A DNA stretch of 63,000 nt, counting the filler, from an uncultured Methanosarcinales archaeon (GTDB lineage: Archaea > Nanobdellota > Nanobdellia > Woesearchaeales > BS150m-G63), in NCBI GenBank assembly GCA_964630685.1. It is 4 parts of 4 records of this genome, joined end to end, with 100 filler letters (N's around TTAATTAATTAA, not from the genome) between each part and the next. Parts side by side here need not be neighbours in the genome. Positions count along the whole stretch, not along the records: positions 47,844 to 61,312 come from CAZVVW010000016.1; 3 more parts are not named here. One strand, given 5' to 3'. Below are positions 25,189 through 61,312 of the stretch, one piece after another (positions within the stretch are counted from its first letter, which is position 1; every line of letters begins with the position of its first letter). A program made the position numbers and the translations under genes. The notes beneath the pieces were generated by a model, which saw only the letters and a program-made list of their open reading frames with translations, had not been told where the DNA came from and searched no databases.

Positions 25189-26280
25189 ATGGATATTTTA
25201 TATTTATTTCTGCCGGCGATATTATTGTTGGGTGCTGTTGTTAGCTATGAAGATATAAAAATAGGCAAAATAAGAAATAAGTGGGTTGTTTTAGGGGCTT
25301 TGGTTGCTTTGTTATTATGGCTCGGGCTGTATCTCTTTAAGGTTGTGAGTCTAAATTATGTTATGTTGGTTTTTGTTTATTCTTTGGCTGCACTAGGAAT
25401 TGGTTTTTTTATATGGTTTATTGGATTATGGAGTGCAGGGGATGCCAAATTATATTTTGCTTTTAGTTTACTGATTCCTTTGTCCAGTTATAGGTATAGT
25501 GAAGGTTTTCCATTCATTACTCTTTTGGCAAATATTATCTTACCCATTTTTGTTTTTTTGGTGGTGAAAATATTAATAAAAAGTAGTTGGAATCAAAAAT
25601 TAATTGTTGTCAAAGGGATTTTGAGACCAAAAAGGCTTGGGGGTTTTGTGTTGGTAATATTTAGTCTTGTGTGGATATCTGGGTATTTGTTTCATTTAAT
25701 CAATATAAGGCCAAATTATGTTTTTAATATAATTGCTATAATGGGTTTGAATAAATTGTTGGGTGAATTGCTTAAATATAAATTTTTTAAAGAAAAGAAG
25801 ATCACTGTTACTAAATTTTTAATGGTTATTTGTATTTTAAGGGTTGTTTTTGAGTATCAATTAATTTTAACTTGGGTGTTTTGGAAGAGTTTCCTATTAT
25901 TAACTATGGGTTATGCTTTAATTAGAATGTTTATTAGTGATCTTGAAGGTATTTTTTCTAAAAAAATAGATGTGCGAAATCTGAAAGAGGGGGATGTGTT
26001 GGCAGAGATGATTACAAAAAATGGTGAAAAGAAAACAATTAGTGATTTTGGTTATTCCCAGATGGGGCAGAAAGACTCTTTATTTGAATTGGATTATTCT
26101 GGTTTAAAGGAAAATGAAATTAAAATGATAAAAAAATTATATAAAAGGAAGAAATTGATGTTTAAGAATATATTGATGCAAGAGACTATGCCCTTTGCGC
26201 CTTTTATCTTTTTAGGGGCTTTATTGACTTTGATGTTGAAAGGAAATGTAGTGGTTGTGTTGATGTTGTTCTTTTATTAG
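25189..26280 (+). CDS. Archaeal prepilin peptidase (A24 family, long EppA-like form)
   Basis: SYEDIK...IRNK, WSAGDAKL catalytic Asp motifs; many TM helices; LKEGDVLAE and PFAPFIFLG C-terminal motifs. Confidence 0.9.
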   Translation: MDILYLFLPAILLLGAVVSYEDIKIGKIRNKWVVLGALVALLLWLGLYLFKVVSLNYVMLVFVYSLAALGIGFFIWFIGLWSAGDAKLYFAFSLLIPLSSYRYSEGFPFITLLANIILPIFVFLVVKILIKSSWNQKLIVVKGILRPKRLGGFVLVIFSLVWISGYLFHLINIRPNYVFNIIAIMGLNKLLGELLKYKFFKEKKITVTKFLMVICILRVVFEYQLILTWVFWKSFLLLTMGYALIRMFISDLEGIFSKKIDVRNLKEGDVLAEMITKNGEKKTISDFGYSQMGQKDSLFELDYSGLKENEIKMIKKLYKRKKLMFKNILMQETMPFAPFIFLGALLTLMLKGNVVVVLMLFFY

Positions 26281-43804: not shown

Positions 43805-44023
43805 ATGGTAACAACTATACAAATAAGTCAAAAATTGCTTGCTATATTGAAACAGAAGAAACTCTATAATAAAGAATCTTATGAAGAAGTTATTTGGGAT
43901 GCATTAGAAGATTCTATGGAGTTATCTAACGAAACTAAAAAAAGAATTAAATTGGCTGAAAAAGATATTGAAGAAGGAAGAATTTATTCTCTTGATGAAG
44001 TTAAGAAGGAGTTAGGAATATAA
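43805..44023 (+). CDS. Antitoxin (RelB-like)
   Basis: TTIQIS...ESYEEVI...IEEGRIYSLDEVKKELG. Confidence 0.8.
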   Translation: MVTTIQISQKLLAILKQKKLYNKESYEEVIWDALEDSMELSNETKKRIKLAEKDIEEGRIYSLDEVKKELGI

Positions 44024-44271
44024 TGTGGGAATTATTTTTTACTAAAGAATCTAAAAAATTCTTGAAAAAACTTAATCGTAAAGATAAAATTAGGATAATT
44101 TCTGTTTTAGAGAGGTGCAGGGTAAGGCCTCATGCGTATGTTAAAAAATTAATTTCATCTCCTTATTTTAGGTTGAGGGCAGGAGATTATAGAATAATTC
44201 TTGATATAAATAAGGGAAAATTGTTAATAATTGTTATTGATATAGGCCATAGAAAAAATATTTACAAATAA
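44023..44271 (+). CDS. RelE/ParE family toxin
   Basis: FRLRAGDYRII...IGHRKNIY. Confidence 0.88.
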   Translation: MWELFFTKESKKFLKKLNRKDKIRIISVLERCRVRPHAYVKKLISSPYFRLRAGDYRIILDINKGKLLIIVIDIGHRKNIYK

Positions 44272-45132: not shown

Positions 45133-45486
45133 ATGAATGAATTAGAAAAAACTTTTATGGAGGAATATGAGGGCGCACAAGAACAGTTGATGAAAGAGAG
45201 ATATAAAAATGCAACGATTCTTTTTTCAAAAGCTCTTTTTGCTTTGTGTGATGTATTAATAGATCTAAAATTAAAAAGATTACCTAAAAATCATGGAGAA
45301 AGATTTAGAATTTTAGAGGAATATTTTCCTAAAGTTTATTTTATTGTAGATAATTTATTTTCAGATTATACTGATGCTTATTATAAATCAATAGCAGAAG
45401 AAGTACCTAAGAAGATAAAAAATGAGATTAAAAAAATTGCAGAGTTTGAAACACTACCAAAAGAGATTAAAGAAATTATTAGATGA
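45133..45486 (+). CDS. HEPN-like domain protein
   Basis: YKNATILFSKALFA...PKNHGERF; paired with a nucleotidyltransferase. Confidence 0.7.
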   Translation: MNELEKTFMEEYEGAQEQLMKERYKNATILFSKALFALCDVLIDLKLKRLPKNHGERFRILEEYFPKVYFIVDNLFSDYTDAYYKSIAEEVPKKIKNEIKKIAEFETLPKEIKEIIR

Positions 45487-45979
45487 TAATTTATTAGATA
45501 TAATCTTTTTTGGGTCTTTTGTTAAAGGGGGAACTCCTAAAGATATAGATCTTGCTTTAATAGTGAAAGAGAAAAAAGGTTTGGATTCTGTTAAGAAAGA
45601 TTTAAGCAAAATTATTGGTGGGGAGTTAGATATACAAATAATTGATCTTGATTCTATTTATAATCAGATATGGTTAACCCTGATTAAAGAAGGATTTAGT
45701 GTTAAGAAAAATAAATTTTTGTATGGGATGTATAACATAAAACCTTTAATTTTATTTAAATATTCGCTTAAGAAATTAAATAATGTTCAAAAGGTGCAGT
45801 TTGAGAGGGGGATTAAGAAAGTTTTGGAGAAAGAAGGCTCGTTTCTTACGAGATCTGTTGTTTTGGTTCCTCTTAAATTGAAAAATGAGTTTATAGATTT
45901 TCTGAAAACATGGAATATATATTATGAAAGCCAAGAGTATGAACTAGTTCCTTTTATGCGAAAAGAAAATTTTATTTAA
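45422..45979 (+). CDS. Minimal nucleotidyltransferase (MNT) domain protein
   Basis: IIFFGSFVKG..PKDIDLALI. Confidence 0.85.
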   Translation: MRLKKLQSLKHYQKRLKKLLDDNLLDIIFFGSFVKGGTPKDIDLALIVKEKKGLDSVKKDLSKIIGGELDIQIIDLDSIYNQIWLTLIKEGFSVKKNKFLYGMYNIKPLILFKYSLKKLNNVQKVQFERGIKKVLEKEGSFLTRSVVLVPLKLKNEFIDFLKTWNIYYESQEYELVPFMRKENFI

Positions 45980-47843: not shown

Positions 47844-48059
47844 GCAGGAGGAATAGCTTTAGCGGCTTTCGGAATATTATCAAATCCTGTTGGTTGGGCA
47901 ATAGGGATTGGAGGATTACTATTCGCAGCAGGAACTTTAGTATATGATCATTTTTTCAATACAGATGTAGAATGGGCCTCATTTATTCTTTTCAGAGAAT
48001 ATGATGTAGAACAATTAAAAAACATTAAATGCGAAGTAATGCCAATAGCACAAACTTAA
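47844..48059 (+). CDS. 3' part of the gene that begins at 718(-)
   Basis: AGGIALAAFGILSNPVGWAIGIGGLLFAAG...KCEVMPIAQT*; first 55 nt are the reverse complement of 1..55, in frame. Confidence 0.85.
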   Translation, partial: AGGIALAAFGILSNPVGWAIGIGGLLFAAGTLVYDHFFNTDVEWASFILFREYDVEQLKNIKCEVMPIAQT

Positions 48060-48117
48060 CATATAATAACCCAAGCATAACACAAATAATTTAAATAAAC
48101 AAAACTTACTAAAAAAA

Positions 48118-48261
48118 ATGAAATCAAAAAAAGGGTTCGAATTTTCTTTTATGGCTAAATTAATTTTAATCTTAATGCTTTTAATAATATTTTTAGTTTT
48201 TCTCATAGTAAAATTCAAACCAAACATATTGGGTTCAATAAGTTTATTTGACGTATGGTAA
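48118..48261 (+). CDS. 47-aa micro-pilin (absent from the ORF track)
   Basis: MKSKKG|FEFSFMAKLILILMLLIIFLVFLIV...; stop overlaps the next ATG region. Confidence 0.75.
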   Translation: MKSKKGFEFSFMAKLILILMLLIIFLVFLIVKFKPNILGSISLFDVW

Positions 48262-49190
48262 TCAAAAATAAAAAAGCAGGTTTCCTAAATAGTAAATTAG
48301 GAAAAATAATTATTGTGTTAGTGGTATTAGTTGTAATTATGTCTATATTCTACCCAAAAATCTGGAGCGGATTAGAAACAGCAATGCAAACAGTTGGAAT
48401 AAATATCTGCCTCAGTTCGAGAATGAATTCTGCAACATACAATCAAGAAATAGAAAGGCATATAGATTATGAAGAGTTTGAAGAAGCAACAGATATGTAC
48501 CTAGAATATCGTCAATGTTTTTCAGACCCACAACTAACACTAAATACAGAAAATACAGAGATATTAGCAGAACTCGTATGTAAAAAAGGATATTTCAATT
48601 ATTCTTCAGAAATATACAACCACCTTTCTTCAGAAAACCCTTCGGAAACAGAAAAAACTTGTTTGACCCTAGAAAACATCCAAGATTTCCACAATAGAAG
48701 AAAAAACAAAGACTCACTAGAACTATTAGAACAATTAGAAATACTAGATTATGAAGTTCCTTCATGGAATTTATTAATAGCGGAAGCATATCTTGCTTCA
48801 GAAAAATATGAAGACTCATACGAATCCGCGTACTATAATTCTTGGGATTTAGAAGATTTAACAACAGATCAAAAAGAAAAAATAAAAGAAATAGTAGAAA
48901 ACATTTACACTTCAATAATAGCAAAAAAAATGGTAGATATTTATGATGATTCAGAATCCTTTTGTATATATCGGACAACATATTTTCCTTATACCACAAT
49001 CTCTTTAGGGGATTTATCAGACGCTACAACTGAACAAGGAAAAAGCATAGCAATTGGAGGAGATGAATCTCATTTAGAAATGGGAGAAGATTTAACTGGA
49101 TGTTATACAATAAAATCCGATTCAGAAAAAGTGATGATTGAAGATTATTGCGCATCACATTGTAATGAAATAATGGAATATACATCATAA
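48255..49190 (+). CDS. Pilin-like protein with helical (TPR-like) body
   Basis: KKA|GFLNSKLGKIIIVLVVLVVIM; LLIAEAYLASEKYEDS. Confidence 0.75.
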   Translation: MVIKNKKAGFLNSKLGKIIIVLVVLVVIMSIFYPKIWSGLETAMQTVGINICLSSRMNSATYNQEIERHIDYEEFEEATDMYLEYRQCFSDPQLTLNTENTEILAELVCKKGYFNYSSEIYNHLSSENPSETEKTCLTLENIQDFHNRRKNKDSLELLEQLEILDYEVPSWNLLIAEAYLASEKYEDSYESAYYNSWDLEDLTTDQKEKIKEIVENIYTSIIAKKMVDIYDDSESFCIYRTTYFPYTTISLGDLSDATTEQGKSIAIGGDESHLEMGEDLTGCYTIKSDSEKVMIEDYCASHCNEIMEYTS

Positions 49191-49216
49191 AAAAAGAAAA
49201 TAAAAAAACACCAAAA

Positions 49217-49501
49217 ATGAAAAATAAAATAATGAACAAAAAAGCACTAGTTTCAAGAACAATAGTTTTAATGACTTTGGGAATAATAGTCTTAATTATT
49301 CTAATTATACTTTTTTCAGGAAAAGCGAGTATTTTTTCAAAAGGTGTAGGTGGAATTTGTACAGATCAAGAAGGAACATGTTATTATCCTACAGCAGAAT
49401 GTCCTGAAGAGAAACCAATAAAAATGATGGCAAAAGGATGCCCATCAAATGAAACAGATACTGAGAAAAAATCTGGATTTTGTTGCACTTCTTTAGGATA
49501 A
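49217..49501 (+). CDS. Small pilin-like protein
   Basis: NKKA|LVSRTIVLMTLGIIVLIILIILF; Cys-rich head ending FCC. Confidence 0.85.
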   Translation: MKNKIMNKKALVSRTIVLMTLGIIVLIILIILFSGKASIFSKGVGGICTDQEGTCYYPTAECPEEKPIKMMAKGCPSNETDTEKKSGFCCTSLG

Positions 49502-49543
49502 ACAAAAACAAAACAAAAGAAAGCTTAACAAAACAAAATGAAC

Positions 49544-49620
49544 AAAACAATAAGACAGAAGATTTCGGCTAAAGCACCCATCTTCAGTGTTGCCTTTTAG
49601 GCAACCCAAAAGTCTTAAAG
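49544..49620 (+). repeat. Structured intergenic repeat, copy 3
   Basis: Same core; identity with copy 1 extends through the next gene's MNKKAI codons. Confidence 0.9.
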
Positions 49621-49643
49621 CTTTATTCATTTTAAAAAACAAA

Positions 49644-49874
49644 ATGAACAAAAAAGCAATAACCACACAAACAATAATTTTATTAGTATTAATTCTCATA
49701 GTAGTAGTAACTTTTTTGTTTTTCTTTTCGAGTCAAGCAAATATTTTTTCAAAAGGAACAATGAGTTGCGAATCAAAAGAAGGCGTGTGTATGAATGTCA
49801 CAGAATGTGAAGGCATTATTTCAAATTTCAAATGCACTAAATCAGAATATGCATGTTGCATAAAAATGACTTAG
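49644..49874 (+). CDS. Small pilin-like protein (76 aa)
   Basis: MNKKA|ITTQTIILLVLILIVVVTFLFFF; ends ACC. Confidence 0.85.
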   Translation: MNKKAITTQTIILLVLILIVVVTFLFFFSSQANIFSKGTMSCESKEGVCMNVTECEGIISNFKCTKSEYACCIKMT

Positions 49875-49911
49875 CAAAATTTATATAGTATATTCAATTA
49901 AATTTAGTAAA

Positions 49912-50394
49912 ATGAATAAAAGAGGATTTACAACAGAAGGAAAAATAGGTGGAATTGCGTTAGTTCTAGTTGCAGTGGTGGTGATGTTATTTATTTTTCA
50001 AGGTCCTGCAAAAGCAGCAAATCTAGAATTCATATCACAGACACAAATAAAAGTAAAATTAGATAAATGTACTTTTGATGCAGAACAGGCATATTCTAAA
50101 GGAATTTCATTTTCAGATACAGATGACGATGGACACCCAAATACTTGTGATATTTGTTTAGGTGTAGATCCTGGAGCAAATACTGAAGATGGACAAAATG
50201 ACTTAGATGATGATTTAGATGGTATGCCAAACGATTGCGACAAAGATGCTTATAATCCCAACGAATTCACCTGTTTAGATTATAGGGTGTGGGATAAACA
50301 AAACAATAAATGGTTAAATGCTTGTTGTACAGAACTTGCAGGAGACAATAATTTTAAAATAAGTCCCAACCTCATCTGTAAAAAAGTAACCTAA
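49912..50394 (+). CDS. Pilin-like protein with TSP3-like Ca-binding repeats
   Basis: MNKRG|FTTEG...; DTDDDGHPNTCD, DDDLDGMPNDCD. Confidence 0.8.
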   Translation: MNKRGFTTEGKIGGIALVLVAVVVMLFIFQGPAKAANLEFISQTQIKVKLDKCTFDAEQAYSKGISFSDTDDDGHPNTCDICLGVDPGANTEDGQNDLDDDLDGMPNDCDKDAYNPNEFTCLDYRVWDKQNNKWLNACCTELAGDNNFKISPNLICKKVT

Positions 50395-50395
50395 G

Positions 50396-52255
50396 ATGGA
50401 TTTCTTTAACCAAAAAAAGGCATTTATGGGACTTTCTTTATCTCAAATGGTGGGCATAATATTAGTTATACTAATCTTTATTCCGTTTACAAGTTTATTT
50501 GCAAAAACATTCAACACTTTTTTTGGAGGGGAAAACCCATCCATAGAAAATTTTCGCTCACTCACAGAAAAGGTTCAAGAATTACTTCTAAATCCAGATA
50601 TGGTTGCAATAGAAACAAACTTCCCTTATTTTATTAGGGACAATGATTATGTTATAGTTGCTTTCGATTATGAATGGTATGGAGATGGCACAGATTCTAC
50701 AGAAGATAATGTCCCTTATGGTCCATTTGAATCAAATCTATGTCACGATGAAGGAATAAGGAGGCCAATGGAATGTTTAGATAAAGCTTGTTTGTGTATT
50801 TATGAAGACACAGCAGTAAATGATTTCATGGAAGGGGGAGATCCAGCACCAATAGAATGTGTTCCATTCGGAAATAATCTCTTCTTTTCAGGTGCAGAAG
50901 GTTACCCAGATTATTTAGAAGATAAAGACGGAACTAACGATGGATATAAAAAAGAATTCATTGAAGACACAATTAATTTTACAAACCTAACAAAATTAGA
51001 TTATGAGTTTTTTGTAATCTATGGAGAATGCGGAAATTCAGGATGTAAGGTTTATGAAAATAATGATTGTGATGAGGAATTTAATCAATTTGACGCAAGA
51101 AAACTTTACATAGAAAAATATTATGATTTAGATAGTCATAAAACTCATATACTCATCGCAGTTCAAGAAGGCAAAATAAATCAAAGGGCAGAAAACGCAT
51201 CAAAATTAATAGAAGCATTAAGAGAATCAGAACAAATGGTTGTACAAACCCCTTTATCTGAAATGCCAATAACTGGCCCGCCAACAATTTCCAATGAAAC
51301 AATAAAAAGAATACTTGAAAGTGCAAGTTCTCCAGCAGTCATAGCATATCAAGCATTTTATGATTTTGGAGTTCAATATGATATAGATCCGGCATTTGCA
51401 TTAGCATTTTTCAGACATGAATCAAATTATGGAACATCCAATAACTGGGTCGGAAAACCATCAATTTGCCTACCTAATAGTTCTAATAATATTGGAAATA
51501 TAAAATACACTCAAAGTTGTACAAACAATTATGGCGCAACAAATTGTAAGGGATTCTGCCATTATCCTACATGGGAAAAAGGAATTGAAGCATGGTACTC
51601 ATTGATTAAAAATAGTAATCATTATGTTGCTGGAGGGAGAGAGACTATCGCAGAAATACTTCCAGTATATGCTCCATCAAGCGATAACAACAATATTCCA
51701 GAATATATTACAGCAGTATCAGATTCAGTATCTTCTTATCGAGAGTTAGAACCCAACATAGAATTAAGACTAGTATCTATTGATTCAAACGAGGTTTCTT
51801 GCACCGGACAATGTAAATTAACACAAGAAGCATATGTTAAATTAATTGAAGCAAATAATATAGCAAAACAACAAGGAAGAGAATTGCGCGTATATTCTTC
51901 TTATAGAACTCCGGAACACCAAAGGACTCTTTTCTTAAATGGCGATTGCAATAGGCAAATGGTCGCAGGCCCAACAGTAGATTCATCAGAGTGTAGTATG
52001 AATAATCCAATAATTCAAAATTTAAATAATTTTAACGGCCCACATACTACTGGAGGGGCAGTAGATTTAAGGTTCGAAGACACTTCCTGGGATGATATGA
52101 CTACAGCAGATAAACAACAATTAGAAGATGTGATGTATCAAGTAGGGTGGGTAAGATACGCAAATGAATGGTGGCATTTTGAATACGAAACTATTAGGTG
52201 GGCAAGAGCAGACACTAATAATGATGGTTTTCCAGATCAATCAGCATTGGTATAA
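50396..52255 (+). CDS. Pilin-like protein fused to a GH73/lysozyme-like glucosaminidase and an M15 (VanX/VanY-like) peptidase
   Basis: KKA|FMGLSLSQMVGIILVILIF; IDPAFALAFFRHESNYG...NNIGNI...YPTWEKGI...YAP; SSYR, HTTGGAVD, EWWHF. Confidence 0.85.
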   Translation: MDFFNQKKAFMGLSLSQMVGIILVILIFIPFTSLFAKTFNTFFGGENPSIENFRSLTEKVQELLLNPDMVAIETNFPYFIRDNDYVIVAFDYEWYGDGTDSTEDNVPYGPFESNLCHDEGIRRPMECLDKACLCIYEDTAVNDFMEGGDPAPIECVPFGNNLFFSGAEGYPDYLEDKDGTNDGYKKEFIEDTINFTNLTKLDYEFFVIYGECGNSGCKVYENNDCDEEFNQFDARKLYIEKYYDLDSHKTHILIAVQEGKINQRAENASKLIEALRESEQMVVQTPLSEMPITGPPTISNETIKRILESASSPAVIAYQAFYDFGVQYDIDPAFALAFFRHESNYGTSNNWVGKPSICLPNSSNNIGNIKYTQSCTNNYGATNCKGFCHYPTWEKGIEAWYSLIKNSNHYVAGGRETIAEILPVYAPSSDNNNIPEYITAVSDSVSSYRELEPNIELRLVSIDSNEVSCTGQCKLTQEAYVKLIEANNIAKQQGRELRVYSSYRTPEHQRTLFLNGDCNRQMVAGPTVDSSECSMNNPIIQNLNNFNGPHTTGGAVDLRFEDTSWDDMTTADKQQLEDVMYQVGWVRYANEWWHFEYETIRWARADTNNDGFPDQSALV

Positions 52256-52297
52256 ACAACAAAAATTATATAAACTAATTTCTTTACAACACACAGT

Positions 52298-53350
52298 ATG
52301 AAAAAAAGAGGGCAGATTACTCATGAGATTTATTTTATCATGATGGAAGTGTTTATAGCACTTGCAGTAGCATTTTTTCTTTTCAAATATGTTAATCTAG
52401 TGGTTGAAGATACAACTTTAGAAAGAACAATCTTATCAAGAGACTTAGCTCTTCTTTCAAACACAGTTTATTCCGCACCAGGAAATTTAGTTTACACATA
52501 TGAAAGTAGAACAAATCTTTCAATGTTTGATTACGCATTTACTAAAAAACCTCCCCTGATGGAACCACAATTAACAGTGCTTCAGCAAGGAGTTGCCGAA
52601 CTTTCTTACCCATTTGTATTAAACAATCTTTTTGCAAGAGATATAGGTAAATCTGATAAACACACTGTTTTTTCTCCTCAAGAAATATTATTTCAAAAAG
52701 AAGAACAAGAAATAACAGTCAAAAAAGAATTAACCCCTCATTTGGAGGGGGCGGTTTGCCCGGTTCTAGATACAAAAAAAACAAACACGACAACATTAAA
52801 GGTACTTTTAGATCCTGGAAAAGATTATGAAAATCCCGGAGCAAATAATACAGCACTCAATTTAATAGAATACAAAATAACCATTGATATTTCAAAAGAA
52901 ATAGGAAGGCTGTTACAACAAAATTTTCCAAATATAGTTTTTACGAGAGAGAACACAAAATCTAACTTAACAGAAAGATTAACAAAAATAAAATTAGAAA
53001 ATGCAAACATAACTCTAAGCATCCATACAGGAGATTACCAACCTACAAAACCAAATACATTTAAGATGTATTATAATTCAAAATCCAACAAAAAAAAAGA
53101 AATCCAAAAATTAGCTTGTTTTATTTCTAATGAAATATCAGGGCAGACCACACTCAAAACAACAACCCTCCCATTAGAAATAGAAACACTACCAGATTTA
53201 GATTCAAGAAGAATATTAACACCCACAAGCAAGATTCAACTATATCTAGAAGTTGGGAATATTCAAGCATATGCAAATAATAACCCTTTACTCGATTACC
53301 CCCAAATATCCAATGCAATAAAAGACGCAATTGAATTGTATCACAGATAA
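52298..53350 (+). CDS. Pilin-like protein fused to an N-acetylmuramoyl-L-alanine amidase (Amidase_3) domain
   Basis: MKKRG|QITHEIYFIM; VLLDPGK, IEY, VFTRE, LTER, LSIHT, YLEVGNI. Confidence 0.8.
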   Translation: MKKRGQITHEIYFIMMEVFIALAVAFFLFKYVNLVVEDTTLERTILSRDLALLSNTVYSAPGNLVYTYESRTNLSMFDYAFTKKPPLMEPQLTVLQQGVAELSYPFVLNNLFARDIGKSDKHTVFSPQEILFQKEEQEITVKKELTPHLEGAVCPVLDTKKTNTTTLKVLLDPGKDYENPGANNTALNLIEYKITIDISKEIGRLLQQNFPNIVFTRENTKSNLTERLTKIKLENANITLSIHTGDYQPTKPNTFKMYYNSKSNKKKEIQKLACFISNEISGQTTLKTTTLPLEIETLPDLDSRRILTPTSKIQLYLEVGNIQAYANNNPLLDYPQISNAIKDAIELYHR

Positions 53351-53351
53351 G

Positions 53352-53933
53352 ATGAAAACAAAAATAAACCACATAAAAGGAAAAAAAGGCTTATTCACTT
53401 TTAACATGGTATATATGATACCTAGATTAATTTTCTTAATAATAGTTCTCTTTTCAGTCATCATGCTTGTAGGGATGTTCCTAAAGATACATGCAGATAC
53501 TTTTTATGTGGAAGCAGACCTCTTTGCCCAAAGCTTAATTTATTCTCCTCACGGAATATCCTATTATAATCCTTTGTTGTATAAGGTTCAGCCAGGAATA
53601 ATAGATAAAACAGAATTCACATCTGGAATTATAGAATCCAGAATAAACAATAATTCTTTTTATTATGGTAAACAAAACAAACACATCGCAGCAAAAATAA
53701 CTTTAACTAGTGTGGATAATTCCACAAACCACACAATTTACTATAATGAGGGGAGAGGGAAAGCATATGGATATAAATTTTGGAACCCCATAGCTAAAGC
53801 GGAAATAGAAGGAAAGGGCGCAGCAAGATATTTGCCAAAAATAATACCTACCCTAATAAAGGAATCATCAGGCCACAATGTAATTTACATTCCAGGAAGC
53901 ATATCATTTGAAATCACAATGCCCAACAAATAA
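53352..53933 (+). CDS. Pilin-like protein
   Basis: KKG|LFTFNMVYMIPRLIFLIIVLFSVIML. Confidence 0.8.
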   Translation: MKTKINHIKGKKGLFTFNMVYMIPRLIFLIIVLFSVIMLVGMFLKIHADTFYVEADLFAQSLIYSPHGISYYNPLLYKVQPGIIDKTEFTSGIIESRINNNSFYYGKQNKHIAAKITLTSVDNSTNHTIYYNEGRGKAYGYKFWNPIAKAEIEGKGAARYLPKIIPTLIKESSGHNVIYIPGSISFEITMPNK

Positions 53934-53991
53934 AATAATTAAAATAATCAAAAAAAACAAAACAAAAATAAATAACAATCAAAAAGAAAAA

Positions 53992-55542
53992 ATGAAATCA
54001 AAAAAAGCATTCATAGCATCTACCTTGATAGATTTTTATGCCTTTGTAGTCTTCATATTAGTTGTTTTAATCTTTTTTGTAATTTTTCTATTAATGAAAG
54101 GTTGTGATGGATCACCCTCTTTAGACGATGTGCCACATCAAAAATTAAACGTAGATTCTAATTATGTTCTTTTAACTTGGTTAAAAAATCCATTAGATTC
54201 ACAAACAAGATCAGCAATCTCAAAAATTTATAAGATAAATCAAATAAATAGTTTTTCAAATGGCCACACAACAAAAGTACTTAATTTTTCAAAACAACAA
54301 AACTATACTTTTTTTTTGAATGCCTCTCCACGTATAATCTACAGTAATGCAACAATAGATTTAGGGGAACTATTTTCTTTTACCAATAATCATATAGCAT
54401 TCGTTTTAGCTAACTCAGATCCTAAAATAAAAGAATGGGAAAATCTATGTAAAATATTATCAACAACAATACTCCCTTATAGAATATTAAAAAAATATAC
54501 TAGCTCATTCACATATGGGTTAAGAGATAATGAAGGTACGTCCTGTTTAGATAAAACAGTTCCACTAATTGAAGAACAATGGAAAAATGCAACACTTTTT
54601 ACGATGAAAAATCATAACTGGGACAATAATACTCCCCCAAAAAATATGCTTGTTTTAGTATCAGATAAATGTATAAATTATTCTCCTCAAGACTCCATTT
54701 CTGAAGAAATTCAAGAAACCGCAATAGCCAAGAATATATCAATATGGCAGATGTATAGAAGCAACGACCCTCAAGAAATTAAAGATTGTAAAGACAAACA
54801 TAACCAATTAAGTCAGATGGGGGGAGAGTTTTTCACATACAACAACACGATTAATTTTACAGACCACATTCAAAATAAAATATTGGAAATATCTAATGAT
54901 CGATCAGAGATTTCTATATCTGTTGATTTTGGAACTGATGCCAAGATCGATTTTAAAAGTAACAATACATTTAATCACACTACACTTGAATTCAAGAAAG
55001 CACTAAATACATACACCACAAAGAAGTGTACCCCAAATACAAAATGTCTATTCCCTATAAAGATTTCAGGAAAAAAAGGTAGTTTTTCTTTAGGTAATAT
55101 ACAAGTACAAAAAACATTAGGGGATGCTAAAAAGAGGATTAGAAGTAATTTAAAAAAGGCAAATATCGCAGATTTAATAGCATTCAGTCAAACAGACGAA
55201 GATTTAGAAGAATTAAGAGGCGAAAACATAAATTCTTTTTTTAACAACGCATATCATGATTGGTGGCATTTAATAATCAATTATCCAGATGGAACAAAAG
55301 AAGAATATGGTCACAGTTACACAGCAGATACCATCCCTTCAATTATTTTAGCTGCAACAATGAGGGTAGGTCTTTTTCCAATACTTCCAGCAGGATTAAG
55401 TTATGTATATGATTATTCAATTCTCCCAGAATCGGAAAAAATAAACATCAATCAATCAATACCTTCATTGAATAAAGATCCAATAAACATAGAGTTTTCA
55501 AATTGGGTAATAACATATGCTTCATTAATTCCTTTTACTTAA
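53992..55542 (+). CDS. Large pilin-like protein, possible degenerate vWA-like domain
   Basis: MKSKKA|FIASTLIDFYAFVVFILVVLIFF; LVLVSD...AIAKNISI...QMGGEFF. Confidence 0.75.
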   Translation: MKSKKAFIASTLIDFYAFVVFILVVLIFFVIFLLMKGCDGSPSLDDVPHQKLNVDSNYVLLTWLKNPLDSQTRSAISKIYKINQINSFSNGHTTKVLNFSKQQNYTFFLNASPRIIYSNATIDLGELFSFTNNHIAFVLANSDPKIKEWENLCKILSTTILPYRILKKYTSSFTYGLRDNEGTSCLDKTVPLIEEQWKNATLFTMKNHNWDNNTPPKNMLVLVSDKCINYSPQDSISEEIQETAIAKNISIWQMYRSNDPQEIKDCKDKHNQLSQMGGEFFTYNNTINFTDHIQNKILEISNDRSEISISVDFGTDAKIDFKSNNTFNHTTLEFKKALNTYTTKKCTPNTKCLFPIKISGKKGSFSLGNIQVQKTLGDAKKRIRSNLKKANIADLIAFSQTDEDLEELRGENINSFFNNAYHDWWHLIINYPDGTKEEYGHSYTADTIPSIILAATMRVGLFPILPAGLSYVYDYSILPESEKININQSIPSLNKDPINIEFSNWVITYASLIPFT

Positions 55543-55654
55543 AACTATAAAAAAGAAAAACTAAAAGAAAAATAAAAACAAATAAAACAAAGCAACACTA
55601 AACAATGGACAATTTACAATAAACAATAAACAACAAATAAAACTAACAGAAAAA

Positions 55655-56359
55655 ATGAAATCAAAAAACAAAGAGATTCAAAAAATCTCTCAGCATTTTA
55701 ATTTCAAAAAAATGAAATCAAAAAAAGCAATGATATTTAATATATCTTTAGTAGTTATAACTATAGTCGTACTTTCAACAGCATTCATTGCAATAAATAA
55801 TAAAATAGAAAAAGTAAAAAACCAAGAACCTATTGGAACAAAACAATACCAATTAATAACAACCTATCAAGAAGCAGAAAAAGCACAATTCTATATAGAA
55901 CAATCAGCAAAGTACCATATACTAGAAATCAAAAAACAATTAATAAAAAAAAGTGGAAGTATCCAAAACAAGGAATACATTCAAAATTTTACAAATTTTT
56001 TAGAAAAAAAATTAAATAACTCGCTTTCATTATATCCTTATAAAAATATAATTGTCCCTTTACTCAATAATTATGAAATATCATTTACTGAAGAAAACAC
56101 TTTATTAACAGCAGCGGCAAAAGAGGACATGGTTTTATCTCATTTATATGGAGAATATCATTTAAATCCATCTTTCATCCAAGATTTTAGTTTATGTGGA
56201 GATGGAGTAAAAGAAGGGAATGAAGAATGTGACGATGGGATTGATGACGCAAATGAATTATTTATAACAACAAACCCATTTAATCCAGACACAGATGGAG
56301 ATGGAATAACAGATGGAGAGGAATTGTCTAACGGAACAAATCCCATTAGCCCCAATTAA
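55655..56359 (+). CDS. Pilin-like protein with C-terminal TSP3-like repeat
   Basis: KKA|MIFNISLVVITIVVL; CGDGVKEGNEECDDG; DTDGDGITDGEE..GTNP; start may be the downstream Met. Confidence 0.8.
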   Translation: MKSKNKEIQKISQHFNFKKMKSKKAMIFNISLVVITIVVLSTAFIAINNKIEKVKNQEPIGTKQYQLITTYQEAEKAQFYIEQSAKYHILEIKKQLIKKSGSIQNKEYIQNFTNFLEKKLNNSLSLYPYKNIIVPLLNNYEISFTEENTLLTAAAKEDMVLSHLYGEYHLNPSFIQDFSLCGDGVKEGNEECDDGIDDANELFITTNPFNPDTDGDGITDGEELSNGTNPISPN

Positions 56360-56448
56360 TCTTAAAATCTTAAAAAATAGGGTATTCTAATTTCTATTCT
56401 TAATAACACAAAAATATAAATACAATAACTTAAACCAAAATCAATACA

Positions 56449-57666
56449 ATGATAAATATGCCATACCCAACAATAATTGAAAAAATAAAAGAGGGCTCAG
56501 GACTTTCAGAAACAGAAATAACTCAAAAAATAGATAAAAAACTCAAGCAACTTTCAGGATTAATTTCAAAAGAAGGCGCAGCACATATTCTAGCAAACGA
56601 ACTCGGAATAAAAATATTTGAGATTCCAAAAAACATCCAAATTAAAGATATTCTAGAGGGGATGCGTAGCATAGATATTGCAGGAAAAGTACAACAAATC
56701 TACGAAGTAAGAGATTTTGAGACCGAAAAAGGAAAAGGAAAAGTTGGATCTTTCATGATGGCAGATGAAACCGGCTCAATTAGAGTTGTATGTTGGTATG
56801 ATCAAACAGAAACAATAGAAAAATTAACAAAAGACCTCACAATAAGATTGGTTGGAGGATATGTAAGAACAAATAATAACAAAAAAGAGATCCACCTCAA
56901 CGAAAGAAGTAAAGTTATATTCAACCCAAAAGGAGTCACAATTGGAGAAGTAAAATCATTTACTTCAACAAGAAAAAAATTATCAGAATTAACCGAAAAC
57001 GCAAGTGAAGTAGAAGTTTTAGCAACCATTGTTCAAGTATTTGAGCCAAGATTCTTTGAAGTTTGTCCAGAATGTAATAGGAGAGCAAGACAAAGAGAAG
57101 ATGGATTTTTTTGTGAAGAACACAACAAAGTAACACCAACATACTCTTATGTATTAAACTTATTGTTAGACGACGGAACAGACACAACTAGAACAATATT
57201 TTTCAGCAAACAATTGGAAAATTTAATTGGAAAAACAAAAGAAGAAATTCTTACTTACAAAGAAAACATCTCAGATTTTGAACAAATAAAAACAGACCTT
57301 CTTGGAAAAACAATAAAAGTAATCGGAAGAGTCAAGAAAAACGAAATGTTTGACAGATTAGAAGTAATATCTCAATTAGTTTTTACAGATATAGATCCTG
57401 AAAAAGAAATAAAAAGATTAGCAGAAACCCAAACAACAGCAAATTCAACAGAATCACCAACAGAAAAATCCACAACAGAATCAACTACTCAAGAATCAAC
57501 ACAAGAACCAATCAAAGAATCAACACAAGAATCAACTCTTGAAGAACCAAAACCATTAGAAGAAGCAATAGAAACAATAACAGAACCAATAGAAACACAA
57601 AACACAACAGAATCAACAGAAGAAAAACCAACTACTGAATCAACAACAGAACAAGATGCTGTTTAA
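56449..57666 (+). CDS. rpa: Replication protein A (OB folds + Zn ribbon, acidic tail)
   Basis: GLISKEGAAHILA, DETGSIRVVCW, CPEC...CEEH, LDDGT. Confidence 0.9.
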   Translation: MINMPYPTIIEKIKEGSGLSETEITQKIDKKLKQLSGLISKEGAAHILANELGIKIFEIPKNIQIKDILEGMRSIDIAGKVQQIYEVRDFETEKGKGKVGSFMMADETGSIRVVCWYDQTETIEKLTKDLTIRLVGGYVRTNNNKKEIHLNERSKVIFNPKGVTIGEVKSFTSTRKKLSELTENASEVEVLATIVQVFEPRFFEVCPECNRRARQREDGFFCEEHNKVTPTYSYVLNLLLDDGTDTTRTIFFSKQLENLIGKTKEEILTYKENISDFEQIKTDLLGKTIKVIGRVKKNEMFDRLEVISQLVFTDIDPEKEIKRLAETQTTANSTESPTEKSTTESTTQESTQEPIKESTQESTLEEPKPLEEAIETITEPIETQNTTESTEEKPTTESTTEQDAV

Positions 57667-58138
57667 AACCCACATAGCTTTTGCATTATTGATTTCTTTA
57701 TATTTTTTTCATTATTTCACCACCCCACCAATATTATCAATTTTAATAATTCTCTTTGCATCACTTATTCCAGATTTAGATACAATCAATTCAAAAATAT
57801 CAAAGATAAACCCCTTAAGAAAACTAACAAAATATATATTCAAACACAGAGGGATGCTCCACTCTTTATTCACACCAATTTTAATCTACTTAATTATTTA
57901 CATAATTCACAAAGAAATAGCACTATTAATTGCAATAGGGTACACATCCCACCTCTTCCTAGATTCTTTTACAAAACAAGGAATAAAACCATTCTACCCA
58001 CTAACAAACTTAAAATTTAAAGGAAACACCACCACAAATAGCATAATCGAGAAGCTTTTATTCTGGATAATTGCAATATTAATCCTACTTAAATTCTTCA
58101 CTCCCCACTGGACATTTGTGCGTAAGCTATTTAAATAA
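57656..58138 (+). CDS. YdjM-family membrane-bound metal-dependent hydrolase
   Basis: KTH, LIPDLD, HRGMLHS, SHLFLDSFT. Confidence 0.88.
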   Translation: MLFKTHIAFALLISLYFFHYFTTPPILSILIILFASLIPDLDTINSKISKINPLRKLTKYIFKHRGMLHSLFTPILIYLIIYIIHKEIALLIAIGYTSHLFLDSFTKQGIKPFYPLTNLKFKGNTTTNSIIEKLLFWIIAILILLKFFTPHWTFVRKLFK

Positions 58139-58267
58139 AGCCCACTTTATACTATTTAGCTGTTAGAAAACAGCGAACTCCACTCTCTGGGGCCACGAAA
58201 TACATCGCGAGCCCATAATTTAAGGAGGGTATGAAATAAAATGCGAATAGCAAAGGAGGTGGTTTAG

Positions 58268-58570
58268 ATGGAAAAATCTGAAACCCCAAACAACACACCT
58301 GAAAAAAAGTTTAGTACAGGAGTGATAAGTGCTACAATCTGGAAAAACTCCGGCACATCAAAAAAAGGAGAACCAGTAGAATTTAGGACGATTTCTTTAC
58401 AGAGACGTTACACAGATAAAGATGGAAATTGGCAGTCAACCAATTCTTTAAGAATTAATGACTTACCCAAAGCCACCTTGGTATTAAACAAGGCATACGA
58501 ATACATTGTTCTAAAAGAACAAGCAGATTCTTCGGATACTAATGAAATTTCTGAAGAAATTGTATATTAA
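58268..58570 (+). CDS. Small conserved protein, possible PC4/SpoVG-like nucleic-acid-binding fold
   Basis: PEKKF..G.ISATIWKN...RRYTDKDGNWQST.SL..NDLPK; strong GGAGGTG RBS. Confidence 0.7.
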   Translation: MEKSETPNNTPEKKFSTGVISATIWKNSGTSKKGEPVEFRTISLQRRYTDKDGNWQSTNSLRINDLPKATLVLNKAYEYIVLKEQADSSDTNEISEEIVY

Positions 58571-58664
58571 TTGAAAAATTGGGTGCTTATCACTTAGGAA
58601 TTTTCGGAAAATCTTCCTAAATTCATTTAAAGATAAGCACTCTTTATTATTTTAGGTGATAATC

Positions 58665-59660
58665 ATGGAAAAAGAAAAACAAGAAAAAGAACAATCAAAA
58701 CAAGAACCAACAACAATCACAAAGAAAAAGGAAATATCTATTTTAGATTTGCCCGGCGTTGGAGCTGCAACAGCAGAAAAATTAAAGAGTTTTGGATTCA
58801 CAACTTTAATGTCTATCGCAGTAGCTTCTCCAGGACAACTCATGGATGTTTCAGGCTTAACAGAAAGTGCAGCAAGAAAAGTAATCAATTTTGCAAGAAA
58901 TGCAATGGATATGGGTTTTGAATCCGGAAGCGATCTATTAAAAAGAAGAGCATCTGTACAGAAAATAAATGTAGGATCTGAATCTTTCAACCAATTAATG
59001 GGCGGAGGATTTGAATCTGGAGTAATAACAGAGTGTTTTGGAGAATATGGTTCAGGAAAAACACAAATAGCTCATTTATTGGCAGTAAATGTCCAAAAAC
59101 AAATACCTAATGCAGAAGCAGTTTATATTGATACAGAAAACACATTTAGGCCAGAGAGATTAATTCAATTAGCAGAAGGTGCAGGACTAAATCCTGAAAA
59201 AGTATTGAAGCACGTTAAAGTTGCTAGAGCATATAATTCAGACCACCAATTATTACTCGCGGAAAAAGTGGAAGATATGCTTAAAGAAGATGAAACCAAT
59301 ATAAAAGTAGTGATAATAGATTCATTAACTTCCCATTTCAGAGCAGAATTTATTGGAAGAGGCACTTTAGCAGAAAGGCAACAAAAACTTAACAAACATA
59401 TGCACACCTTATTAAAGATAGCAGATGTTTATAATGTTTTAGTTTATGTGACTAACCAAGTGATGGCAAAGCCAGATACTTTTTTTGGAGATCCAACACA
59501 AGCAATTGGCGGACATGTAGTCGCACATTCATCTGCTTTTAGAATCTATCTAAGAAAAGGCAAAAAAGGTAGTAGGGTAGCAAAACTTGTAGATTCTCCA
59601 AATTTACCTGATGGCGAATGTAACTTTATGGTCGAAACAGAAGGTCTAAGAGACCTTTAA
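58665..59660 (+). CDS. radA: DNA repair and recombination protein RadA
   Basis: HhH DLPGVG, GEYGSGKTQ, YIDTENTFRPER, GRGTLAERQQ, TNQV. Confidence 0.97.
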   Translation: MEKEKQEKEQSKQEPTTITKKKEISILDLPGVGAATAEKLKSFGFTTLMSIAVASPGQLMDVSGLTESAARKVINFARNAMDMGFESGSDLLKRRASVQKINVGSESFNQLMGGGFESGVITECFGEYGSGKTQIAHLLAVNVQKQIPNAEAVYIDTENTFRPERLIQLAEGAGLNPEKVLKHVKVARAYNSDHQLLLAEKVEDMLKEDETNIKVVIIDSLTSHFRAEFIGRGTLAERQQKLNKHMHTLLKIADVYNVLVYVTNQVMAKPDTFFGDPTQAIGGHVVAHSSAFRIYLRKGKKGSRVAKLVDSPNLPDGECNFMVETEGLRDL

Positions 59661-59782
59661 TTTTTTCTTTTTTATTCAATTTTACAAACCACTAAAAAGC
59701 ATAATTTTAAAAATACATTCTTATTATTCTGAGTCCAAGGCACACTATTGTGCTTTAATATATTAGATAGGTGAAATAAAAT

Positions 59783-60208
59783 ATGTATGGAAATCAAGGT
59801 GGCTTTCAGCCAAGAAGTTTTGCTCCAGTTAATGTTGGAGATGAAGTAGACGTAAAGATAGAAGCAGTAGGAGATAAAGGCGACGGTATTGCAAAGATTA
59901 AAGGCTTTGTTTTATTCATACCCAATGCCAAAGAAGGAGAAGAAGTTAAAGTAAAGATTACTAAAGTTCTTCGAAGAGTCGGTTTTGCAGAAGTAGTTGG
60001 AGCAGGATCTGCACCAGCAGAAGAACCTGCACCAGCAGAAGAACCTGCACCAGCAGAAGAACCTGCACCAGCAGAAGAAACAGAAGAACCTGCACCAGCA
60101 GAAGAAACAGAAGAACCTGCACCAGAAGCTGAAGCTGAACCTAAAGCAGAAGAAGAAGCACCAAAAGATACAGAAGATTTTGGTGAAGATTTAGAAGAAG
60201 CAAAATAA
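59783..60208 (+). CDS. Single TRAM domain RNA-binding protein with acidic EEPAPA repeat tail
   Basis: VKIEAVGDKGDGIAKIKGFVLFIP; 18-bp coding repeats at ~60010-60130. Confidence 0.9.
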   Translation: MYGNQGGFQPRSFAPVNVGDEVDVKIEAVGDKGDGIAKIKGFVLFIPNAKEGEEVKVKITKVLRRVGFAEVVGAGSAPAEEPAPAEEPAPAEEPAPAEETEEPAPAEETEEPAPEAEAEPKAEEEAPKDTEDFGEDLEEAK

Positions 60209-60327
60209 ACATCTTTTTCTAATTTTTTCTTTTTTTTATTTTCAAATCAATAAGAAACACTAAAAATTAATCTATATTCTGCACTATATAAATCTTTTTA
60301 TACCAATTTAGCTAAAACAATAACAAT

Positions 60328-60615
60328 ATGGAAAGTAAAACCTTAAATTTATTGGTAACACTCACTGCATTTGCATTTGTTAGTGCTTTCTTATTTACTT
60401 TTTCTTGTACAGGCAATGGCGAAACATTAGCAGGTCAAGCATACTCGACACAAAACTGCGTTTATTGTGCAGAATACTGTGGAAATGTACACACACAAGA
60501 AGGGGGAACAATAATTTCTTCTTCAACCACCAATATCAAAGCATTATCAGAAGGATGTACAGGAGATTTCACATGGGCACCAGCAAACACAGATGTTAAA
60601 TTATGCTGTAAATAA
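60328..60615 (+). CDS. Small secreted Cys-rich protein
   Basis: N-terminal hydrophobic helix, LAGQAY, terminal CCK. Confidence 0.65.
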   Translation: MESKTLNLLVTLTAFAFVSAFLFTFSCTGNGETLAGQAYSTQNCVYCAEYCGNVHTQEGGTIISSSTTNIKALSEGCTGDFTWAPANTDVKLCCK

Positions 60616-60843
60616 ACTCTTTTTAGAATTCTGTTTGAAAAGACCACTAAAAGATTTACAAGAATAAATTCTTTTTTATTTAATATTATTTTAATATTTT
60701 AAGGTATTCCTTTTGTTTGTATGATGCAACCTAACAGTCAAAATAAATTTAATCTATTGTACAGTACAACAAGCACCACTCACCTTTATGTTAGCAGGTG
60801 GAAAAGATAAGTTTGGGGAGATAAATGAAAAATCTTATGAGTG

Positions 60844-61311
60844 TTAAATATAACATGTACATTCTCCACATTCTTGACAATTGTGCCAAGTACCACTACT
60901 CTGAATTAAATAATTATCAAATCGCCCGTTATAAACACTTGCGTAATTAGTACATGAAGTTCCATATTTATTAGAACAATAAGAAGTAGTAAAATCAAAA
61001 CCCATCAATTTACAAAAATGCTTGCAATCATCACCTCCACCATCACCCCTAGAACCCACTATATCATATTGTGATGAGGCGCCATCCCTTATGTGTGGGT
61101 TAGTTAAAAGAACATAATTTGAGCCCATAATACAATCAGAATAAGATGCCCTCTCATCCTCTAACTGTGTATTACTCTCCCTTACCCATACACTTCTTGG
61201 AGGGCACCACACTGTTAACACTGGAACATTATCTAAACCAACAGTGATATCACCTTCAACAGTTAAATCATCTTTAACAGTTAAATCTCCTCTGATTTCA
61301 GCATTTGCCCC
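60844..61311 (-). CDS. 3' part of a surface protein (beta-helix-like repeats + Cys-rich C-terminal domain), truncated by contig end
   Basis: Frame open to the gap: AEIRGDLTVKDDLTVEGDITV..., then DDCKHFCKLMGF...CQECGECTC. Confidence 0.7.
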   Translation of the reverse strand, partial: GANAEIRGDLTVKDDLTVEGDITVGLDNVPVLTVWCPPRSVWVRESNTQLEDERASYSDCIMGSNYVLLTNPHIRDGASSQYDIVGSRGDGGGDDCKHFCKLMGFDFTTSYCSNKYGTSCTNYASVYNGRFDNYLIQSSGTWHNCQECGECTCYI

Positions 61312-61312
61312 A

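Follow-up and report, generated by a model that had tools for sequence, protein, structure and literature searches.

Five class III-like genes and their hydrolase domains

The window is a 63,000-nucleotide stretch of DNA, made of four contigs joined by runs of N, from the genome of an uncultured archaeon of the Woesearchaeales (assembly GCA_964630685.1, here called G000; 936,502 bases, 96.6% complete). Contig C16 (window 47844-61312) holds five consecutive genes, A to E, that encode class III-like proteins, and the products of A and B also carry domains of peptidoglycan hydrolase families. The same five-gene cassette is found in many related genomes, and its products may form the tip of a type IV filament (T4F) directed at bacteria.

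Genes A to E belong to a run of nine consecutive class III-like genes (48255-56359), each with a basic leader, a Gly/Ala site and a single hydrophobic helix. The first four (48255-50394, plus strand) encode 311, 89, 76 and 160 amino acids. A sequence-only reading of this DNA had described A and B as two adjacent genes with class III leaders (KKA|FMG and KKRG|QIT). Each leader is indeed followed by one hydrophobic helix, but the genes are part of the longer run rather than a pair. Seven of the nine genes, A and B among them, fit what we take to be the FlaFind-type leader pattern.

Gene A (50396-52255, plus strand, as are all features of the cassette) encodes 619 amino acids. Its leader (50396-50422) has a predicted cut after Ala9 (KKA|FMG), with Phe at +1, which is not the EppA-type +1 Gln site. 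The carrier domain that follows (50423-51205) consists of a hydrophobic helix and a Cys-containing body, and is without cargo, that is, without an added domain, in most relatives. In the window, it is followed by a GH73 (glucosaminidase/muramidase) domain (51257-51745) and an M15 zinc peptidase domain (51773-52252). The GH73 domain matches PF01832 (E 5e-7, 30.8 bits against a cut-off of 30.2, residues 320-412). It retains Glu342, which is invariant in 11 aligned sequences, and a Tyr-Ala-Pro motif that aligns with Tyr-Ala-Thr-Asp of a canonical member; we take these to be the catalytic Glu and the Tyr motif of the family. Its best bacterial relatives named glucosaminidase are 38-48% identical, and several of the 65 matches are labelled Ktedonobacteria or Chloroflexia. 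In a tree of 72 rows, the domain groups with a mostly Chloroflexota-labelled set (support 95/88), and seven other archaeal domains fall outside that set. This tree, which has no outgroup and whose bacterial rows were picked by likeness to the query, does not reveal donor or direction.

The M15 domain matches PF01427 (E 1e-5) and PF02557 (E 5e-5), both slightly below cut-off, at residues 474-597. The NCBIfam D-Ala-D-Ala dipeptidase model gives E 1.7e-12, far under the cut-off of that model. The SxHxxGxAxD and ExxH motifs and the upstream Arg, presumably diagnostic of the family, are all retained (Arg504, His550, Asp557, Glu591, His594) and are invariant in six aligned sequences. Because the VanY, Peptidase_M15 and D-Ala-D-Ala dipeptidase models all match with scores below or near cut-off and do not separate the possibilities, the domain may be an endopeptidase, a carboxypeptidase or a dipeptidase. 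A PDB sequence search with gene A returned nothing at E values up to 1, and no Pfam wall-binding domain was found in A or B. The GH73 and M15 domains of the sequence-only reading are upheld in gene A: the open reading frame and every quoted motif are in place, the profiles match and the catalytic motifs are intact.

Gene B (52298-53350) encodes 350 amino acids, comprising an EppA-type leader, a pilin-like core and a domain of Amidase_3 fold. The leader, at the start of the gene (52298), has a predicted cut after Gly5 (KKRG|QIT), with Gln at +1 and Glu at +5. The amidase domain (52784-53347) matches PF01520 (E 1.2e-15, 58.4 bits against a cut-off of 27). An AlphaFold model built from 49 sequences has a predicted local distance difference test score (pLDDT) of 90, and superimposes on Amidase_3 structures with Z 22.7 and a root-mean-square deviation (rmsd) of 2.2 A over 176 residues (4rn7), where the next other fold reaches Z 10.9. 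The top 34 ranks of a Foldseek search with this model are all amidases, and a PDB sequence search with gene B gave weak amidase matches and nothing else. Profile and fold therefore agree with the Amidase_3 domain predicted earlier.

The zinc site of this domain is incomplete. In Amidase_3 enzymes, we take the zinc ligands to be His-Glu-His, accompanied by a catalytic Glu. In gene B, Lys175 replaces the first His, while Glu191, His243 and the catalytic Glu318 are retained; the same Lys175-Glu191-His243 series occurs in the congener G018. The amidase head of B is probably an inactive or weakly murein-binding remnant, judging by these residues. The sequence-only reading had counted three wall-cutting chemistries. 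The GH73 and M15 domains have complete catalytic motifs, but the M15 domain may fall in subfamily B, C or D, and three active chemistries are not established because the first zinc ligand of B is Lys.

The other three genes of the cassette carry no recognized hydrolase in the window. Gene C (53352-53933) encodes a class III-like protein of 193 amino acids that is nearly always free of cargo. Its nearest ESM Atlas clusters are all archaeal, carry no protein names, and are labelled Candidatus Woesearchaeota or Nanobdellota. A comparison of gene C with DUF7287 (0.83) is a lead only, and comparison of the B and C core profiles gave a probability of 45%, confined to the N-terminal 66 columns. Gene D (53992-55542) encodes a class III-like protein of 516 amino acids, about 350 longer than most relatives, and the extra part has no Pfam match. 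It is only 42% identical to its counterpart in G018, in which the neighbouring genes are 74-82% identical, and by eye alone the extra part looks vWA-like. Gene E (55712-56359) encodes 215 amino acids with C-terminal DUF4215 and TSP3-type calcium repeats, a tail that differs from that of E in G018. In relatives, E is the main hydrolase carrier.

Gene order and hydrolase cargo across the phylum

Matches to gene B are found in 136 of 301 genomes of the window's taxonomic order, matches to gene A in 57 and matches to PF01520 in 49. A gene C profile matches 336 of 401 genomes drawn from the phylum, other orders included, mostly once per genome. All of these tallies include five genomes flagged as unpublished. 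One hundred regions were fetched, 98 through gene B matches and two through gene A; 99 had gene B, and together with the window they make up 100 loci, in which slots were assigned by profiles built from the window's own genes A to E. Synteny, a check proposed with the sequence-only reading, came out as a fixed order: A-B-C-D-E is present in 83 of the 100 loci and B-C-D-E in 96, with a median span of 4.6 kb. An identical A-E order is found in 40 further loci chosen through gene C, of which 25 are from the same order as the window and 15 from other orders.

In the window, the cassette is followed by genes for RPA, a YdjM-like protein, a 100-amino-acid open reading frame and RadA (56449-59660, plus strand), which are conserved downstream neighbours. 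RPA lies within 4.5 kb downstream of E in 94 of 117 loci with room for it, and RadA in 54 of the 117. Perhaps, then, the cassette forms a competence-like tip of a DNA- or nucleotide-uptake pilus, co-regulated with RPA and RadA, to which some lineages added hydrolases that release bacterial DNA. The persistence of cargo-free cassettes in many genomes would also fit. However, no DNA-binding or uptake domain was found on any cargo, and gene neighbourhood by itself is no proof of co-function, so we regard this explanation as very improbable. At loci L179 and L182 (genomes G085 and G178), gene E, which carries M23 cargo, has been displaced from the A-B-C-D run, and TBP and MCM come after that run in its place.

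Cargo is found mostly on E. Of 92 E proteins extended by 90 residues or more, 50 match SLT, M23, M15, GH73, NlpC/P60, Amidase_2, M74 or 3D domains at E 0.001 or better, one more matches DUF2272, and the other 41 match fn3 only or nothing; an M15-type motif is seen in four E cargos without an assigned family. Of 36 E proteins scored, 28 have the hydrolase lodged between their N-terminal core and a C-terminal part that is conserved. Extended A proteins have a hydrolase match in five of 35 cases (the window, G018 and three others). Among 78 extended B proteins, 25 match Amidase_3, one matches 3D and one M15. In six loci, the gene after E adds a hydrolase. By hand tally over A, B, E and the next gene, a hydrolase other than the amidase of B is present in 60 of the 100 loci, and any hydrolase, the amidase included, in 69. 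The pilin-like carriers with murein-hydrolase heads of the sequence-only reading are thus a far more general feature than one locus revealed.

For the loci chosen through gene C, 75 of 101 listed proteins were scanned, the remaining 26 being RPA-sized genes after E. Pfam hydrolases are present in 10 of the 25 same-order loci, where they add M23 on B and GH25 after E, and in four of the 15 loci from other orders, always on A and once under cut-off. At least nine hydrolase families thereby occur on the cassette across loci. The loaded slot varies by lineage: it is A in the window and in four of the 15 other-order loci, B (with M23) in two loci, and mostly E or the next gene elsewhere. As judged from its sequence, the window's genome is unusual only in the loaded slot, with cargo on A and B and none on E. 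Because many loci have no Pfam hydrolase, the cassette does not depend on one for its core function, and its ancestral role need not be lytic, as the large number of cassettes without cargo shows, particularly in other orders.

How well the catalytic residues are kept bears on whether the heads cut or merely bind. By a profile built in this analysis, 62 of 100 B proteins contain the amidase fold. The His-Glu-His-Glu set is complete in only 16 of these, the window's protein not among them, and the catalytic Glu is present in 50. Both M23 motifs, under a strict pattern, are present in 11 of 21 M23 cargos, others lacking one or both. Retention of a fold while its zinc ligands decay would be expected if the heads were mainly murein-binding lectins on an adhesion tip that attaches the archaeon to bacterial cells or biofilm, catalysis being secondary and often lost; moreover, the modular pilins described so far, as far as the available text of the reports goes, bear adhesive modules. 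In contrast, the GH73 and M15 domains of A retain all catalytic residues, and 22 of 25 SLT cargos keep the Glu-Ser catalytic motif. A mainly adhesive tip accordingly seems quite unlikely to us. As to whether other cargo makes up for loss of the B amidase, another hydrolase is present in seven of 16 loci with an intact B amidase, versus 14 of 21 with a cargo-free B, in counts that include kin that are not independent.

The cassette is not the only place where such enzymes are encoded. In 80 whole genomes, 21 of 72 M23 rows and 28 of 101 SLT rows lie within the cassette or the next gene by hand tally, and the cassette makes up well under 1% of each genome. Murein hydrolases are therefore numerous in these archaea, with the cassette a hotspot rather than the sole site. 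Among 41 M23 or SLT proteins encoded outside it that were examined, two are displaced E genes, one is a member of a different class III family, and the rest carry either an ordinary anchor or no anchor. In G000, a separate membrane-anchored SLT protein of 333 amino acids without a class III leader is encoded at C3:12155-12478 (L176) and is shared with G018. Giant genes after E (L104:12269-16000, L246:1126-6336 and L248:9461-13039) combine M23, M15, GDSL esterase, metallophosphoesterase, GH3 and NAGPA domains, and are possibly aimed at teichoic-acid linkages and O-acetyl murein.

Pilin likeness and a candidate filament tip

Across loci, the strict FlaFind-type pattern is matched by 32 of 78 A proteins and 34 of 93 B proteins. 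The EppA peptidase of Methanococcus maripaludis needs Gln at +1 in its substrates and usually Glu at +5, according to the available text on this enzyme (PMC4371748). Gene B fits this rule on both counts, and gene A is without the +1 Gln. In the same sets, +1 Gln occurs in 16 of 93 B proteins and in 13 of 78 A proteins, and it is not conserved across slots A to E.

The core of B (52313-52735) is modelled with pLDDT 87 as a long kinked N-terminal helix followed by an antiparallel beta-sheet. Its best structural matches among 48,161 chains are PilA4 (Z 4.2, rmsd 4.6 over 94 residues), EpsI (Z 4.2) and GspI (Z 4.0), and pilins or pseudopilins account for 14 of the top 50 neighbours, including ranks 1, 2 and 4. 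These weak matches are no more than suggestive of a pilin fold. For the B-C-D-E cores of genome G001, which are not the window's own proteins, a predicted complex scored 0.54, against 0.32 for the best control, with contact agreement of at least 77% and partner pLDDT of at least 66 across runs. The mark applied is reached by 116 of 157 solved complexes and two of 215 mismatched pairs; at scores of 0.60 or lower, it is reached by 18 of the 157 and by both mismatches. The prediction lends weak support to a hetero-complex of B, C, D and E.

Filament machinery is present in G000: three T4F ATPases score over cut-off, and there are platform genes as well as two A24 peptidases, the second of them on contig C2. 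An ATPase and platform pair lies at C8:11073-15571, with the platform gene at C8:13379. In other orders the machinery adjoins the cassette: an ortholog of this platform gene, with 44-50% identity, lies a few genes upstream of A in 11 of 15 loci, and in four of the 15 the fetched stretch also reaches an ortholog, about 61% identical, of the C8 ATPase. Two more pilin clusters of G000, at C6:47113-57000 and C15:5293-14021, have ATPase and platform genes of their own; pilins of the C6 cluster begin with KA|QAAMEF.

We consider it fairly probable (roughly 0.6) that A to E are minor pilins at the tip of a type IV filament of the archaeon, where they form a complex that presents exchangeable wall-cutting heads to bacteria. 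An A24 peptidase would cut the leaders of all five proteins, whose N-terminal helices could then bundle into the initiation (tip) complex. The ATPase and platform of contig C8 would build the filament from short pilins, pushing the tip complex outward. Hydrolase domains, presumably of bacterial origin, would have been grafted onto or inserted into the tip subunits, and replaced over time. Extension of the filament could bring the heads against a bacterial wall, where the tip would bind and locally cut murein on contact, giving the archaeon access to a bacterial host or prey. In G000, the working heads would be the GH73 domain of A, cutting glycan, and its M15 domain, acting on the stem peptide; the amidase head is more likely to bind than to cut. 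Pilus-delivered wall cutting of a bacterial host or prey had already been put forward in the sequence-only reading. Its pilin-like carriers with hydrolase heads stand, only two of its three chemistries have complete catalytic motifs, and leader processing, complex formation, incorporation into a filament, position at its tip, enzymatic activity and a living bacterial host are inferences.

Several points weigh against a filament tip that attacks bacteria. Only 37-54% of slot members match the strict FlaFind-type motif. All pilin matches of the B core have Z below 5, under the range that the tool calls reliable; Foldseek with this core gave no match at E 0.001, and no Pfam or NCBIfam pilin model matches. 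The complex score of 0.54 falls where most passes are wrong. The B amidase is intact in few relatives and eroded in most, and no Pfam hydrolase is found in 11 of the 15 other-order and 15 of the 25 same-order loci chosen through gene C. About 70% of M23 and SLT matches lie outside the cassette, where a class III leader is convincing in only three of 41 proteins examined. The literature examined describes no bacterial host for this lineage. Class III leaders in archaea also anchor proteins that are not part of filaments, as stated in the available text of a 2026 T4F census (PMC13705601).

This last point opens another explanation, in which A to E are membrane-anchored ectoenzymes for scavenging. 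The helices would serve only as anchors, as for Sulfolobales substrate-binding proteins, and the hydrolases would digest murein debris or dead cells, with no filament tip and no living host. The weak pilin fold scores are consistent with such anchoring, as is the wealth of further SLT and M23 proteins, secreted or anchored, in the same genomes. The GH3, NAGPA, metallophosphoesterase and GDSL domains encoded beside E fit the breakdown of envelope material, and the best NCBIfam match of the M15 domain is a D-Ala-D-Ala dipeptidase model. Simple anchoring, however, does not readily account for five distinct carriers in fixed order, or for the T4F ATPase and platform genes to which these are directly linked in other orders, and turnover of cargo families would fit changing targets better than a fixed food source. 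Scavenging is therefore an unlikely account of the cassette.

Remodelling of the archaeon's own wall was also considered and rejected, because no match to a Mur ligase, transglycosylase or transpeptidase was found in G000 (genome 96.6% complete; 10 of 14 control genomes were positive each time). Pseudomurein contains no D-amino acids and no MurNAc, and on this general chemistry alone it is an unlikely target.

Bacterial hosts or prey have been proposed before for archaea of this kind. The available text of two reports describes large extracellular murein lytic transglycosylase proteins (fam00969) of Woesearchaeota and Pacearchaeota (PMC8204110) and GH23 murein hydrolases of this lineage (PMC9723730), each with such a proposal. 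These systems resemble the cassette in lineage, in exporting murein-directed enzymes and in the proposed host or prey. They differ in that each involves one enzyme family, with pili not mentioned in that text (PMC8204110, PMC9723730), whereas the cassette places its several families on a five-gene class III set linked to T4F. Woldo (M23) and Danwoldo (PF01832) of Halogranum salarium are archaeal modular peptidoglycan hydrolases that kill bacteria, and hydrolases are prominent in Nanoarchaeota (PMC12352652, from its available text). Like the cassette, they include a GH73 enzyme. However, the survey behind them (Strock et al.) required a catalytic and a wall-binding Pfam domain and Sec/Tat signals, whereas A and B have class III-like leaders and no binding domain; the word pilin is absent from the text available (PMC12352652).

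Among filaments, bacterial PilHIJK and GspHIJK tip initiation complexes show an invariant pilI-J-K order, by the available part of a recent account (10.64898/2026.02.14.705861). The cassette likewise has distinct minor pilin-like subunits in constant order and, in most E proteins scored, an insert in the last subunit, and GspI and EpsI are among the nearest folds of the B core. In contrast to those complexes, it shows no sequence similarity to them, has five subunits, swaps catalytic cargo among slots and is archaeal. The Epd pilus of M. maripaludis and Nanobdellati shares with the locus an EppA-like peptidase, KG|Q-type leaders, many short pilins and large accessory proteins (PMC4371748, PMC4858521, PMC13705601). 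Epd-like (T4F system 1) pilins occur in 1990 Nanobdellati genomes in the 2026 census (PMC13705601). In the accessible portions of these papers no peptidoglycan hydrolase is reported for Epd; the census portion does not mention peptidoglycan and that of PMC4858521 does not mention transglycosylase. Unlike Epd pilins, the cassette slots do not conserve +1 Gln. The modular pilins of Streptococcus sanguinis (PilB with vWA, PilC with a lectin) are also pilin scaffolds with grafted modules, and the Kil Tad pili of Myxococcus also have adaptable tips tied to target contact; as described in the accessible text, both are bacterial and their modules, adhesive in the streptococcal case, are not murein hydrolases. 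In its available portion, a 2026 preprint on complete Nanobdellota genomes mentions neither peptidoglycan nor pilin. No description of a pilin-hydrolase cassette was found in the open-access literature; subscription papers and supplements may bear on the point.

What would be new, given that woesearchaeotal murein hydrolases and bacterial hosts were already proposed, is a set of T4F minor pilins with catalytic, interchangeable anti-bacterial heads that is widespread in a DPANN phylum. Such pilins would extend the known roles of type IV filaments. All cultivated DPANN archaea live on archaea, according to the text seen of one account (PMC11291902), and which hosts Woesearchaeota-type DPANN archaea use is an old question. 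A near-universal, mostly single-copy cassette with swappable murein hydrolases offers a concrete machine with which archaeon-on-bacterium parasitism can be tested. The heads can be expressed and assayed without culture of the archaeon, the invariant subunit C can be targeted with antibodies or probes in imaging, and the families of the cargo may hint at the kinds of wall under attack. A broader proposal, to which we give somewhat less than even odds, is that most Nanobdellota inherited the A-E tip complex, and that it became, above all in the window's order, a modular, contact-delivered wall-breaching device with hydrolase families swapped onto its pilin subunits; much of the phylum would then be parasites or predators of bacteria, with the cargo recording host range.

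Genome setting and neighbouring genes

Contig C16 is archaeal: archaeal-type RPA and RadA lie downstream of the cassette, and its GC content of 0.314 is the same as that of the remaining genome. Contamination or mis-binning was rejected on these grounds and because orthologs are in place in many genomes, in agreement with the earlier view that the contig is not bacterial. A gene for 292 amino acids, 88% identical to its counterpart in G018, is split between window 1-718 (minus strand) and 47880-48053 (plus strand), at the ends of contigs C12 and C16. Because one gene spans both contig ends, C12 and C16 abut in the genome. The locus therefore continues upstream into contig C12 (1-8842, minus strand), with further class III-like genes, and runs on via window 718-1 as far as an A24 peptidase with an Arc_PepC C-terminal domain (EppA-like; 25189-26280, plus strand; E 1e-4, under cut-off) at the far end of the joined locus. 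The sequence-only reading had paired this peptidase with A and B; it is on a different contig from them, but the abutting contigs place it in the same locus.

Two candidate adhesins lie within the extended pilin locus, a protein of 3208 amino acids with Ig, fn3 and carboxypeptidase-regulatory repeats (window 9076-18702, minus strand) and an exported protein of 1088 amino acids (5576-8842, minus strand). Adjoining the EppA-like peptidase, a gene at 21179-25150 (minus strand) encodes an exported protein of 1323 amino acids with a Hint (intein-like) domain at residues 715-860. Elsewhere in the window, a small antitoxin/RelE-like pair (43805-44271) and a HEPN/nucleotidyltransferase-like pair (45133-45979) were recognized by eye, and an ORF6N-domain gene is located at 46151.

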